From: Vineibacter terrae
Lineage (GTDB): Bacteria > Pseudomonadota > Alphaproteobacteria > Reyranellales > Reyranellaceae
Length of the DNA stretch: 24,000 nucleotides
Direction of reading: 5' to 3'
Assembly: GCF_008039615.1 (NCBI RefSeq)
Contig: NZ_VDUZ01000001.1
Coordinates: forward strand, 156,834 to 180,833
Shown here piece by piece: positions 12,640 to 23,031 of the stretch. The position numbers were made by a program, and so were the translations under genes. Numbering within the stretch: the stretch's first letter is position 1; each line of letters starts with the position of its first letter. Under the pieces are notes generated by a model. It worked only from the letters and a program-made list of their open reading frames with translations, ran no database searches and was not told the origin of the DNA.

Positions 12640-13536
12640 ATGGAAATGGATATTCTGTCCGGCACATTCCTGTCGGCTCTGCTCGTCATCGTCCTCATCG
12701 ACCTGGTCCTCGCCGGCGACAACGCGCTGGTGATCGGGCTCGTCGCCCGCCACCTGCCCAAGGACAGGCAGCGCAAGGTGATCTTCTGGGGCACCTTCGC
12801 CGCCATCGCGGTGCGGGCCGCCATGGCCATCGGCGTCGTCTGGCTGCTGAAGATCCCGGGCTTCCTCGTCATCGGCGGCCTGGCGCTGGTGTGGATCGCA
12901 CGCAAGCTGCTCGATCCGCAGGAAGGCGGTGGCGGCCACGACGTCGCGGCTGCCCAGACCATGGCCGGCGCCATCCGCACGGTGGTGATCGCCGACGCCG
13001 TGATGGGTATCGACAACGTGCTGGCGATCGGTGGCGCGGCGCATGGCAGCATGCTGCTGATCGTGCTTGGCCTGCTGATCAGCGTGCCGATCATCGTCTG
13101 GGGCAGCCAGCTGGTGATCAAGCTGGTCGAGCGCTGGCCGGCCGTCGTGCTGCTGGGCGGCGCCGTGCTGGCGTGGACCGCCTACGGCATGATCGCGCAG
13201 GAGAAGCTGCTGCAGCCTTGGTTCGCCGCGCACGGCACCGCCAAGCCGATCCTGGCGACGCTGATCTTCGCCGTGGCGCTGGCGCCCTGGTACGCCACCC
13301 ATCTGCGGCCCAAGCACCGGCCGCTGACCGTGCTGCTGCCCGGCCTGCTGCTGTGGCTGCTGGCCTTCGAGGTGGCCGAGGAAGTCTGGCATTTCGAGGT
13401 CGACTACCTCGAGGCCAGCAGCCTGCGCGACTACGCCATCCAGGCGCTGCGCTGGTTCGGCTGGCTGCCGCTGGCCCTGGCCTACCTGGCATGGCGCGGA
13501 CGCGGGACCGCGGCCACCGCGGCTGCGCAGCGCTGA
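12640..13536 (+). CDS. TerC/YjbE-family integral membrane protein
   Basis: The LAGDNALVIG and MGIDNVLAIGG motifs are the duplicated TerC-family signature. 298 aa, polytopic. Confidence 0.85.
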   Translation: MEMDILSGTFLSALLVIVLIDLVLAGDNALVIGLVARHLPKDRQRKVIFWGTFAAIAVRAAMAIGVVWLLKIPGFLVIGGLALVWIARKLLDPQEGGGGHDVAAAQTMAGAIRTVVIADAVMGIDNVLAIGGAAHGSMLLIVLGLLISVPIIVWGSQLVIKLVERWPAVVLLGGAVLAWTAYGMIAQEKLLQPWFAAHGTAKPILATLIFAVALAPWYATHLRPKHRPLTVLLPGLLLWLLAFEVAEEVWHFEVDYLEASSLRDYAIQALRWFGWLPLALAYLAWRGRGTAATAAAQR

Positions 13537-13542
13537 TCTCCT

Positions 13543-14305
13543 CACCTCTCCCGCAGGCGGGAGAGGTCGACGGGCGCGCAAGCGGCCGGCAGGTGAGGGC
13601 CTCAGCACGAGGCGCCTCGTCCTGGGCCCCTCACCTTCCCATCGCTGCGCGATGGGCCCCTTCCTCTCCCGCCAAGCGGGAGAGGAGCAAGGGTCTTCAC
13701 CTCTCCCGCGGGCGGGAGAGGTCGACGGGCGCGCAAGCGGCCGGCGGGTGAGGGCCTCAGCACGGGGCGCCTCGTCCTGGGCCCCTCACCTTCCCATCGC
13801 TGCGCGATGGGCCCCTTCCTCTCCCGCCAAGCGGGAGAGGAGCAGGGTCTTTACCTCTCCCGCGGGCGGGAGAGGTCGACGGGCGCGCAAGCGGCCGGCG
13901 GGTGAGGGCTTCAGCACGAGGCGCCTCGTCCTGGGACCCTCACCTTCCCATCGCGTAGCGATGGGCCCCTTCCTCTCCCGCCAAGCGGGAGAGGAGCAGG
14001 GTCTTCACCTCTCCCGCAGGCGGGAGAGGTCGACGGGCGCGCAAGCGGCCGGCGGGTGAGGGCTTCAGCACGAGGCGCCTCGTCCTGGGACCCTCACCTT
14101 CCCATCGCTGCGCGATGGCCCCCTTCCCCTCCCGCCAAGCGGGAGAGGAGCAAGGGTCTTCACCTCTCCCGCGGGCGGGAGAGGTCGACGGGCGCGCAAG
14201 CGGCCGGCGGGTGAGGGCCTCAGCACGAGGCGCCTCGTCCTGGGCCCCTCACCTTCCCATCGCGTAGCGATGGGCCCCTTCCTCTCCCGCCAAGCGGGAG
14301 AGGAG
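13543..14305. repeat. Tandem array: 4.9 head-to-tail copies of a ~155-nt four-hairpin module
   Basis: Units start at 13543, 13698, 13852, 14006 and 14161. Lengths are 155, 154, 154 and 155 nt, and the last unit is truncated at 145 nt. Units are contiguous with no unique spacers. Each has the same four stem-loops. Differences between units are a handful of substitutions and 1-nt indels. Confidence 0.95.
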
Positions 14306-14320
14306 ATCATGCGTTCGTCT

Positions 14321-14405
14321 GGTCGGGCCGCGGCACTCCAGCGCCGCTCATGATCTTGAGCCAGCGCTGCGCGCCGGGGCGCCGCTGGAGCGGCGCGGCC
14401 CGACC
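14321..14405. other. Long interrupted hairpin just 3' of holC (candidate terminator / palindromic element)
   Basis: GGTCGGGCCGCG (14321-14332) pairs perfectly with CGCGGCCCGACC (14394-14405). CTCCAGCG (14336-14343) pairs with CGCTGGAG (14383-14390). There is no U-tract. Confidence 0.4.
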
Positions 14406-14410
14406 CAAGA

Positions 14411-14860
14411 TCATGCCTTCTTCTCCCAGCCGCCGCGCTCGCCCTGCTGCCAGTATTCGATGGCATGGCCGGCGGCCTTGTAGGCGGTCCAGCGTGCGCG
14501 CGCGTCGGCGACGGCCGCCTCGTCGCGGCCGTCGAAGATCTCCGACACGCGCTCGTAGTCGGCGACGCGCTCGCTCCGCGCACCGTCGGCGACGAACAGG
14601 TAGCTCGAGGCGTTGGGGTTCTCGTCCACATGCGTCAGCCAGATCGGATGGCGCGCGGCGTGGCCGTCGCGGGCGCTGCCATGCGGCAGGAAGCTGCCCG
14701 GATCGTAGGTCCACAGATGCGCGTTCAACGCCTCGACGCGCTCGGCCGAGCCCAGCAGCACCACGGCCCGCTTGCCGCGCTCCAGGGTCAGGTCGAGCAT
14801 GCGCGGCAGCACGTCCTCGAGGCTGCCGCGCATGAGATGATAGAAGCGGACCTCGCTCAC
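14411..14860 (-). CDS. holC: DNA polymerase III subunit chi
   Basis: This is the 3' part of ORF 14411..15121, starting at GTG 14860 (VSEVRFYHLMRGSLEDVLPRMLDLTLERGKRAVV...LWTYDPGSFLPHG). The start overlaps the pepA stop as GTGA (14857-14860). pepA-holC adjacency is the standard arrangement. Confidence 0.85.
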   Translation of the reverse strand: MSEVRFYHLMRGSLEDVLPRMLDLTLERGKRAVVLLGSAERVEALNAHLWTYDPGSFLPHGSARDGHAARHPIWLTHVDENPNASSYLFVADGARSERVADYERVSEIFDGRDEAAVADARARWTAYKAAGHAIEYWQQGERGGWEKKA

Positions 14861-17832: not shown

Positions 17833-18917
17833 GCACCGCGGCGACCCTTGCGCCGGTCGCCGTCACCATGGGCGAGCCGGCCGGCATCGGCGGCGAGCTG
17901 ACGCTCAAGGCCTGGCTGGCGCGGCGCGGCGCCCGTGACGCGTTCTTCGCCATCGATGATCCCGACCGGCTGCGGCGCCTGGCGCGCCGCCTGGCGCTGG
18001 ACGTGCCGGTGGCCGAGATCGACGCGCCCGCCGCGGCCGCCGCAGCCTTCGGCAATGCCCTGCCGGTGCTGCCGCAGAAGCTGGCGACGCCGGAACGCCC
18101 CGGCCAGCTCGATGTGCGCAACGCCCCGGCCGTCATCGCCAGCATCGAGCGCGCCGCGCGCTTCGCCGGCGACGGCAGCGCCGGCGCCATCGTCACCAAC
18201 CCGATCCAGAAGAAGACGCTGCAGGAAGCCGGCTTCCCACATCCGGGCCACACCGAGTTCCTGGCGGCGCTGGGCGGCACGGCCGGCCGGCCGGCCGAGG
18301 TGGTGATGATGCTCGCCTGCCCCGGGCTGCGCGTCGTGCCGGTGACGATCCATGTCGCGCTGCGCCGGGCGCTGGACCTGCTGAGCACGGACCTGATCGT
18401 GCGCGCCGGCCGCATCGCGGCCGATGCGCTGCGGCGCGATGTCGGCCTCGCGTCGCCGCGGCTGGCCGTCGCCGGCCTCAACCCGCATGCCGGCGAAGGC
18501 GGCACCATGGGCGAGGAGGACGCGCGCATCGTGGCGCCGGCGGTGGCGGCGCTGCGCGCCGCCGGCATCGACGCCACCGGGCCGCTGCCACCGGACACGA
18601 TGTTCCATGAAGCGGCGCGGGCCCGCTACGACCTGGCGCTGTGCATGTACCACGACCAGGCCTTGATTCCGCTGAAGACCATCGATTTCGCCGGCGGCGT
18701 CAACGTCACGCTCGGCCTGCCCTTCATCCGCACGTCGCCCGACCACGGCACGGCGCTGGACATCGCCGGCACCGGCACCGCCGACCCGGCGAGCTTCCTG
18801 GCGGCGCTGGACATGGCAGCCGACATGGCCCGCCGGCGTGCCAGTTCATCCCTCCCCCATGCACAGCATGGGGGAGGTGGCCGAAGGCCGGAGGGGGAGC
18901 CGACGTGGTCTTCGTAA
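17829..18917 (+). CDS. pdxA: 4-hydroxythreonine-4-phosphate dehydrogenase, with a repeat-encoded C-terminal tail
   Basis: In-frame part of ORF 17508..18917, from ATG 17829 (ATGA overlap with the surA stop). HPGHTEFLA motif present. The last ~22 codons and the TAA stop (18915-18917) lie inside family-A repeat copy 2. Confidence 0.9.
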
Positions 18918-18978
18918 CCAAGACCACGTCGGCTCCCCTCCGCCCCTTCGGGGCACCTCCCCAGCAAAGCTGGGGAGG
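18851..18978. repeat. Family-A palindromic intergenic element, copy 2 (~128 nt)
   Basis: Same core and same plus-strand orientation as 1534-1658. Terminal hairpins are CCTCCCCCATGC-aca-GCATGGGGGAGG (12 bp) and CCTCCCCAGC-aaa-GCTGGGGAGG (10 bp). Confidence 0.9.
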
Positions 18979-22904: not shown

Positions 22905-22928
22905 CGCTTCCTCGTTCAATGTCGTCGC

Positions 22929-23026
22929 GCCGGGAGCGCGCCACTCCAGTGGCGCCCCGGCGCGCAGCGCCGGATCGTGGGTTGGCCCTTCGGGCCAATG
23001 CGCCACTGGAGTGGCGCGCTCCCGGC
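22929..23026. repeat. 98-nt palindromic element (27-bp perfect outer stem, two inner hairpins) in the lyase/dehydratase intercistronic gap
   Basis: GCCGGGAGCGCGCCACTCCAGTGGCGC (22929-22955) is the exact reverse complement of 23000-23026. The loop holds CCGGCGC-gca-GCGCCGG and TTGGCCC-ttc-GGGCCAA. Confidence 0.85.
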
Positions 23027-23031
23027 AGTCC

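Follow-up and report, generated by a model that had tools for sequence, protein, structure and literature searches.

A five-copy tandem array of a BoxC-like mosaic palindrome between terC and holC of Vineibacter terrae, and the association of its repeat class with DUF559 nuclease genes

Here we describe a tandem array of mosaic palindromes in the gap between the convergent genes terC and holC of Vineibacter terrae, in a 24,000-nt stretch of contig NZ_VDUZ01000001.1 (assembly GCF_008039615.1, positions 156,834 to 180,833, hereafter the window), and compare it with the repeat systems that it most resembles. The closest of these is the BoxC/PIT/TM_ECO repeat of Escherichia coli, whose consensus is CCCTCNCCC N3-6 GGGNGAGGG N3 GGGNGAGGG (Holder et al. 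2015, PMC4666352, which cites Bergler, Bachellier and the Maher lab for earlier studies). Triplex motifs of this kind were searched for with ITxF at a second loop of 1-6 nt, and strain MG1655 carries 23 TM_ECO copies, of which five form inverted pairs that combine two subtypes (PMC4666352). The TM_ECO single strand forms a triplex in vitro, TM_ECO loci are markedly more variable between E. coli strains than control sites, and no association with mobile elements was reported (Holder et al. 2015, PMC4666352). TM_ECO copy numbers as different as 1 and 29 occur among E. coli strains, and Salmonella reportedly has no TM_ECO. A second point of reference is given by the bacterial interspersed mosaic elements of type 2 (BIME-2) of E. 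coli, which form tandem, locus-homogeneous clusters with a copy number that varies between strains (PMC3333891). Repetitive extragenic palindromes (REPs) belong to two superfamilies with GTAG or CGTC tags and with stem and loop rules (PMC3733652). RAYT-associated REPs, which go with a REP-associated tyrosine transposase, are characterised by more than 100 copies per genome. In Bradyrhizobium, three palindromes make up Br-REP1, which lies in overlapping convergent 3' untranslated regions (UTRs) and is transcribed from both strands (PMC5082802).

Tandem Repeats Finder (TRF) detected one array at 13542-14305 of the window (period 154, 4.9 copies, 95% matches, score 1395) with a total length of 763 bp. 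This confirmed the period and copy number, and together with the unit alignment also the unit starts and lengths, given in a preliminary description that had been made from the letters alone. The five aligned units showed 95% mean column identity, with 3-8 substitutions between any pair. The 10-nt stem CCTCTCCCGC had 19 exact occurrences in the window, every one within the array; when up to one mismatch was allowed, 28 matches were found in the window versus 5.9 ± 2.4 in shuffles. At a period of 154-155 nt, the array consists of five complete 143-nt modules and four 11-12-nt linkers, with five hairpins in each module. Hairpin A (24-25 nt) is both the first and the last element of every module, and because it opens and closes each of them, five modules are complete and the last unit, which had been described as truncated, is whole. 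The count of four hairpins per unit was also too low, since TCGACGGGCGCGCAAGCGGCCGGC, read earlier as a linker, folds as a small hairpin (X).

All modules lie on the plus strand. Alignment and a hairpin scan placed module 1 at 13544-13686, where hairpin A (13544-13567, the former SL1) is followed by hairpin X (about 13568-13591), the long imperfect hairpin SL2 (13592-13635), a second small hairpin (Y, or SL3, 13638-13656), and then CCCCTT and hairpin A' (13662-13686, the former SL4). Modules 2 to 5 follow at 13699-13841, 13853-13995, 14007-14149 and 14162-14304, and after module 5 comes AGATCAT, a 3' extension conserved in single-copy homologues. The first linker, GCAAGGGTCTTC, occupies 13687-13698 on the same strand, and the remaining three occupy 13842-13852, 13996-14006 and 14150-14161; the GGTCTTCA portion of the linker is the 5' extension conserved in single-copy modules.

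The four internal junctions are the same except for a 1-nt indel, and sequence variants are common to different units in a mosaic pattern. As described before, the loop of hairpin A holds either A or G, units 1, 2 and 4 have the SL3 loop TGC whereas units 3 and 5 have GTA, and there is an A>G change in unit 2. The T>C change in SL4 of unit 4 was likewise present, and with a G>C change in SL3 of the same unit it disrupts a stem in both places. The linked C>T and C>A changes reported for SL2 of units 3 and 4 were found, and only C>A falls on a mismatch site (C.C); C>T converts a C-G pair to U.G, and neither change is compensatory. Unit 1 has an A at column 49 and unit 3 a T at column 1; both, like the G>C change, had been overlooked in the earlier description. 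Differences between units do not preserve structure. The GTA loop of SL3 is the reverse complement of TGC with one further change (13646-13648 compared with 13954-13956 and 14263-14265), which suggests an inversion via intra-hairpin template switching rather than three independent substitutions.

The array is non-coding and is no CRISPR array, as had been stated. A coding repeat protein was rejected, as the period is not divisible by 3 and the open reading frames that cross the array have no Pfam match. A CRISPR array was rejected because the full 154-nt period is repeated at 95% identity without unique spacers.

In sequence, the module hairpin CCTCTCCC…GGGAGAGG and GGTGAGGG together supply all three blocks of the 'intrastrand triplex' repeat known in E. 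coli as BoxC/PIT/TM_ECO. Within each module, two three-block motifs stand inverted to one another across a short variable spacer. Each motif is composed of a pyrimidine block (CCTCTCCC), a purine block (GGGAGAGG) and a second purine block (GGTGAGGG), with hairpin X (left) or Y (right) inserted ahead of the third block. In 9 of the 10 half-modules, 8/8 Watson-Crick pairs and 8/8 allowed purine-motif triads were counted, and the tenth had one mismatch. The resemblance to BoxC/PIT/TM_ECO extends beyond the blocks CCCTCNCCC, GGGNGAGGG and GGGNGAGGG: both are intergenic, occur in either orientation without a family-wide strand bias here, are often inverted pairs of subtypes (X-type and Y-type here), sit at loci that are hypervariable between relatives (0, 1 or 5 copies here) and have no known function. 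Unlike the E. coli repeat, in which the third block stands 3 nt from the hairpin, the array has a second loop of 25 nt (top strand) or 27 nt (bottom strand) that holds X or Y as an extra conserved hairpin; it also has a defined module of roughly 143 nt, repeats this module five times in tandem, and belongs to an alphaproteobacterium with 70% G+C. Judged by these blocks, the array is a tandemly amplified member of the BoxC-type mosaic palindrome family with a variant architecture. When the hairpin sequence was looked for in the full text of the literature, all matches were unrelated primers, eukaryotic or viral.

To see how the array stands among related genomes, the terC-holC gap was compared across 7 relatives, where it measures 39-174 nt versus 874 nt in the window (loci of the comparison set are numbered with the prefix L). 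The gap of L002, L003, L004 and L331 (HolC identity 87-89%) is 76-140 nt long and has no module. That of L330 (HolC identity 93%) holds a lone A-type hairpin, that of L001 (87%) holds a different five-hairpin element, called family B below, and that of L332 (89%) holds exactly one homologous module, which is oriented as in the window and begins 3 nt past the stop of terC. The window gap holds five modules, and the five-copy array was not at the orthologous gap in any of the 7 relatives. The orthologous gap thus shows a 0/1/5 series of module copies across relatives. Because the gap is empty, or carries a lone hairpin, one module or another family in relatives and five modules here, the array is a tandem amplification that took place locally, at a site of hypervariable content, and has its analogue in the BIME-2 clusters of E. 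coli.

The single copy at the same site in L332 also bears on whether the assembler inflated or collapsed the number five. Short reads are poorly suited to the assembly of 154-nt tandem repeats with 95-98% identity; however, the units carry distinct and consistent combinations of variants (3-8 differences per pair), the array ends cleanly in unique flanks, the last module has the normal 3' extension of the family, and the copy in the relative is bona fide. We consider an assembly artefact very unlikely.

The likeness to BIME-2 (PMC3333891, PMC2817692) is one of architecture only, and to this extent the earlier reading of a BIME-like palindrome cluster between convergent genes was supported. 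Both are mosaics of palindromes in alternating orientation with short linkers, in near-identical head-to-tail copies at gene 3' ends, with a copy number that differs between relatives. In contrast to BIME-2, the sequence here is unrelated and lacks a GTAG tag, no link to a REP-associated tyrosine transposase (RAYT) was found, and the unit measures ~154 nt with five hairpins rather than ~100 nt with two. A classical REP/BIME cluster mobilised by a RAYT (TnpA-REP) Y1 transposase would account for tandem palindromes in alternating orientation, a BIME hallmark, and RAYTs are single-copy genes that could sit outside the window (PMC3333891, PMC2817692). Against this, no GTAG or CGTC stands at the foot of any array hairpin (GTAG occurs only by chance, within the SL3 loop of units 3 and 5), and the hairpins do not follow the stem and loop rules of the REP superfamilies (PMC3733652), so both superfamilies were rejected. 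In addition, the window has no Y1 transposase, copy number is low where it can be counted (1-3 per Azospirillum replicon), and the gene family embedded in the repeats is DUF559. Such an origin is extremely unlikely, and the former suggestion that the array is a RAYT substrate was not supported.

Other known elements resemble the array in part. Like miniature inverted-repeat transposable elements (MITEs), it belongs to elements of <300 bp with an inverted terminal structure, a gene-bearing counterpart and presence/absence polymorphism; unlike them, it shows no target-site duplication at the array or at single copies, and no transposase is known here. The flanks of the array (TGATCTCCTCA left, AGATCATG right) are not direct repeats, and its ends are inverted and structured. 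A MITE-style target-site duplication was rejected: AGATCAT, seen at the right edge, is part of the element, as are the GGTYTTCA and AGATCA ends. RIME elements of rhizobia are also intergenic alphaproteobacterial multi-palindrome mosaic repeats at gene 3' ends, and are likened to the array by description only. The same features are shared by Br-REP1, which differs in sequence and for which no tandem amplification is described.

The module had been implied to be a special, elaborate structure peculiar to this locus, which was not supported; it belongs to a repeat family that is widespread in Alphaproteobacteria and has a BoxC/PIT/TM_ECO core. Whole-module single-copy homologues were found in a Vineibacter metagenome-assembled genome (L139, 86%; L176, 85% and 84%; L141, 78%) and in Reyranella (Reyranella sp. 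CPCC 100927; L170, 81%; L159, 79%). They occupy unrelated loci, each beginning 6-8 nt past the stop codon of a co-oriented gene, and have GGTYTTCA and AGATCA as conserved ends. The module's 3' half (CCCTCACC, a small hairpin, GGGCCCCTY and hairpin A) was present in at least 117 genome stretches, nearly all from Alphaproteobacteria; among the matches listed, these included Rhodospirillales, Sphingomonadales, Caulobacterales and Hyphomicrobiales, with one copy in almost every stretch, otherwise two, and no tandem case. The hairpin alone was present in at least 120 viral contigs, where the third block (GGGGTGAGGG or GGGGAGAGGG) lay at most 7 nt downstream in 83/140 cases and at 8-60 nt in 25/140. 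Copies were counted at 1-3 places per Azospirillum replicon, and at least 3-4 matches per Reyranella or Vineibacter genome were among those listed. A 24-nt signature from SL2 was matched neither in the 185,579 species genomes searched nor in the metagenomes of JGI.

Modules of Reyranellaceae and elements of family B start 2-9 nt past the stop of a co-oriented upstream gene (L139, L141, L176, L159, L170, L332, L001 and window 13536-13544). Several of these elements lie inside apparent ABC-transporter operons, which recalls the E. coli REPs downstream of binding-protein genes.

Next to its sequence, the structure of the module is conserved. Fold z-scores were -5.3 and -6.6 for RNA (both strands examined) and -7.5 for DNA, and hairpins A and A' pair with each other in the predicted minimum-energy fold of the RNA, in line with the proposal that SL1 and SL4 could cross-pair. 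In an alignment of 11 copies, 93.8% of cells were paired versus 41-51% when the partners were slid, and both-side changes occurred at six pairs. Compensatory variation was abundant among 110 distinct copies of hairpin Y, whose mean stem was 5.68 versus 4.06 ± 0.08 in chimeric controls.

A selected multi-hairpin 3' UTR, bidirectional attenuator or small RNA (sRNA) source between terC and holC would agree with these very stable folds on both strands and with hairpins conserved through compensatory changes. It would also agree with the sense orientation of Reyranellaceae modules about 6-8 nt past stop codons (7/7 cases), with the transcription of Bradyrhizobium Br-REP elements in convergent 3' UTRs (PMC5082802), and with the lack of a canonical terminator in the gap; neither a sigma-70 promoter nor an intrinsic terminator was predicted in or around the array. 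Several results argue against it. None of the 7 relatives has the array in this gap, the same sequence also flanks DUF559 genes, and the changes between units are not structure-preserving. Rfam 15 gave 0 matches to the array at the gathering threshold, and below threshold only matches of 16-31 bits to microRNA-precursor, sRNA and long non-coding RNA models with gathering scores of 50-168. Orientation toward neighbouring genes was roughly symmetric in a crude GC3-based context analysis of 122 family copies. This lack of a clear bias suggests a palindrome at the level of DNA and not a strand-specific RNA, and a role of the latter kind was rejected on this account. We regard a functional structured RNA or insulator as improbable.

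These results are most simply read as selfish or neutral repetitive DNA: the array is quite probably a ~150-bp mosaic palindromic element behind the terC stop that was amplified in place to five head-to-tail copies. An element of roughly 150 bp would have inserted directly behind the stop codon, one founding duplication would have been followed by replication slippage or unequal recombination up to five copies, and later point mutations and exchange between units would have produced the mosaic variant pattern. As the junctions are the same bar a 1-nt indel and the variants are mosaic, one insertion, one duplication and slippage or unequal exchange is the simplest reading, and a founding duplication followed by slippage or unequal recombination is the most likely mechanism. 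Amplification is expected to be favoured because single-stranded DNA of the array forms hairpins, possibly triplexes. The array most likely has no dedicated function. Its only likely effect may be that of a stable-hairpin barrier: the hairpin stack in the overlapping 3' regions of terC and holC would hinder 3' exonucleases and read-through, and so may stabilise or attenuate both transcripts. By an E. coli rule on distance from the stop codon and ribosome stalling (cited in PMC5082802), the short distance of 8 nt between the terC stop and the array might also cause ribosomes to stall there as they terminate.

Some observations weigh against this reading of a passive local amplification. The junction AGCA(A)GGGTCTTCA differs from a simple joining of the conserved element ends (AGATCA + GGTCTTCA). 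The array is the only tandem case among the family loci sampled, and TRF on all ~330 loci found no other tandem array of the window module, so something locus-specific, possibly selection, may act here. In E. coli, the TM_ECO triplex was not seen in duplex DNA or in vivo, and PIT elements have neither promoter nor terminator activity (PMC4666352), the latter also counting against a regulatory RNA.

An association of these repeats with one small nuclease family emerged from the family copies. Of 122 copies, 7 abut a gene for a DUF559 (YcjD-like) nuclease (PF04480, Pfam E about 1e-38). At five loci the arms GGTGAGGG and CCCTCACC exactly enclose the DUF559 gene, which thus occupies the central spacer of the module (L155, 1-480; L182, 350-900; L194, 3390-3890; L229, 2500-3030; L241, 3150-3760). 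We then turned the comparison around with 80 metagenome DUF559 loci chosen independently of the repeat (L242-L321) and 224 control windows from the same loci. The three-block motif was present within about 200 nt of DUF559 at 49/80 loci versus 0/224 control windows. It lay upstream in 41/76 and downstream in 35/76 instances, with 27 loci having it on both sides, and alpha-type module ends stood inverted on both sides at 14 loci of this sample. In E. coli, the last codons and stop of ycjD (L323) fall inside BoxC. The link was also found in Sinorhizobium meliloti, Azospirillum, Neisseria, Deinococcus and Synechocystis (among L322 and L325-L329), and so spans Alpha-, Beta- and Gammaproteobacteria, Deinococcus and Cyanobacteria. 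DUF559 genes and BoxC/triplex-motif repeats are thus physically associated. Among the papers searched, none connected DUF559 or ycjD with BoxC.

Two loci showed other arrangements. In L326 (Neisseria gonorrhoeae), the DUF559 gene is flanked by direct, not inverted, repeat copies of roughly 100 nt, which hold a degenerate three-block motif (CCTCTCTCCC TGT GGGAGAGAG CTA GAGAGAGGG). In L311, a 65-nt unit built on the hairpin CCCTCCCCC...GGGGGAGGG forms 5.4 tandem copies at 1084-1431, directly after a DUF559 gene (754-1071); besides this and the window array, the roughly 330 loci held no sizeable tandem array of the repeat class.

The association allows a more active origin of the window array, in which a DUF559 nuclease whose gene lies elsewhere in the genome would have the modules as its non-autonomous partners. 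Its cuts at the ends of the element or at the central spacer, with subsequent repair or copying, would drive dispersal and tandem addition by analogy with TnpA(REP) and BIMEs. The central-spacer genes at five loci, the 49/80 versus 0/224 enrichment with its 14 doubly flanked loci, the recurrence in ycjD and the other phyla, and the tandem hairpin array immediately after the gene in L311 favour such an origin, and four junctions identical bar one indel would also fit a site-specific reaction. But the 24-kb window has no DUF559 gene, only the said 7 of 122 sampled modules adjoin one, and DUF559 genes could equally home into, or be retained at, unstable triplex-motif sites. The role as a nuclease is itself putative, as the sole solved relative in the Protein Data Bank is 3HRL, an uncharacterised 'endonuclease-like protein'. 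A PD-(D/E)XK nuclease of roughly 110 aa is also not known to be a transposase. An enzyme-made array appears doubtful, and local amplification of selfish or neutral DNA is preferred for the window.

For the repeat class as a whole, the nuclease may mobilise the repeats, home into them, or merely persist at unstable sites. To our knowledge, neither an origin nor a partner of the BoxC/PIT/TM class has been identified since the 1990s. It is conceivable, and we put it forward only tentatively, that these repeats, including the module family of the window, are the cis partner of DUF559 nucleases of the Vsr-fold PD-(D/E)XK type and form a second, mechanistically different counterpart of the RAYT-REPIN pair. 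The nuclease gene would then occupy the central spacer, with an inverted motif end on either side; modules that lack the gene, the five of the window among them, would be its non-autonomous derivatives or its homing sites; and nuclease action at the structures would explain both the published hypervariability of triplex-motif loci and tandem amplifications like the window array. The DUF559 family groups with Vsr and a homing endonuclease (PMC3424549). As in the REPIN-RAYT system (Bertels and Rainey 2011, PMC3116915), there is a gene-less inverted doublet that forms a long hairpin, and a small nuclease-family gene flanked by the same repeats in inverted order. Here, however, the gene encodes a PD-(D/E)XK DUF559 protein instead of an HUH/Y1 transposase, mobilisation is only conjectural, and copy number appears low.

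The immediate surroundings of the array are ordinary. As described before, TerC (plus strand) and HolC (minus strand) converge upon it: terC (PF03741) lies at 12640-13536, with its stop at 13534-13536, 8 nt before the first hairpin, and holC, for the DNA polymerase III chi subunit (PF04364), at 14411-14860, with pepA and surA beyond it. The best match of HolC is 93% identical and points to an alphaproteobacterium close to Vineibacter/Reyranellaceae, and look-ups of the exact TerC and HolC proteins returned no record. The genes of the window have ordinary housekeeping and transport functions, with no RAYT, DUF559 gene or transposase among them. Elsewhere in the window there was no second copy of the module; the earlier statement that its hairpins occur nowhere else did not hold, since hairpins of the same class (CCTCCCC...GGGGAGG) were found at 1638, 18851 and 18956.

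Two further palindromic families were observed. Family B is a dispersed five-hairpin mosaic element with the order CCTCCCC hairpin, small GGCCGAAGGCC hairpin, hairpin with a 19-bp stem, small GCCCCTTCGGGGC hairpin and CCTCCCC hairpin. Its window copies (1530-1658 and 18851-18978) lie one between pdxA and rsmA and the other between solute-binding-protein and asparaginase genes, and further copies are in L001 (10457-10619), L170 (1805-1962) and L176 (55-136). Family C comprises long hairpins with common GCGCCRCTGGAGYGGCGCG arms and a CAGCGCTGCGCGCCGGGGCGCC core. One copy, a separate hairpin at 14314-14408 (27-nt arms at 14321-14347 and 14379-14405), lies between the array and holC and is probably older content of the gap; the other, at about 22915-23030, lies between aconitase-like and PEP-mutase genes. 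The motif (CA)TGATCT / AGATCA(TG) recurs at 13534-13539, 14305-14312, 14350-14357 and 14409-14416, covering both array edges, the apex of the neighbouring long hairpin and both stop codons, and similar GATC-containing sequence stands on either side of the lone hairpin in the L330 gap. This recurrence may be a target-site signature or chance.

The array adds an alphaproteobacterial, extended-loop and tandemly amplified form to the BoxC/PIT/TM class, which has been described mostly in enterobacteria, and the 0, 1 and 5 copies at one orthologous site provide a clean natural series for studying how such DNA is amplified. The nuclease link is the more consequential point and the part worth pursuing, because, given a strong cross-phylum link to one small nuclease family, the question of what spreads or destabilises these repeats can be put to a direct test, in E. 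coli too by way of ycjD.

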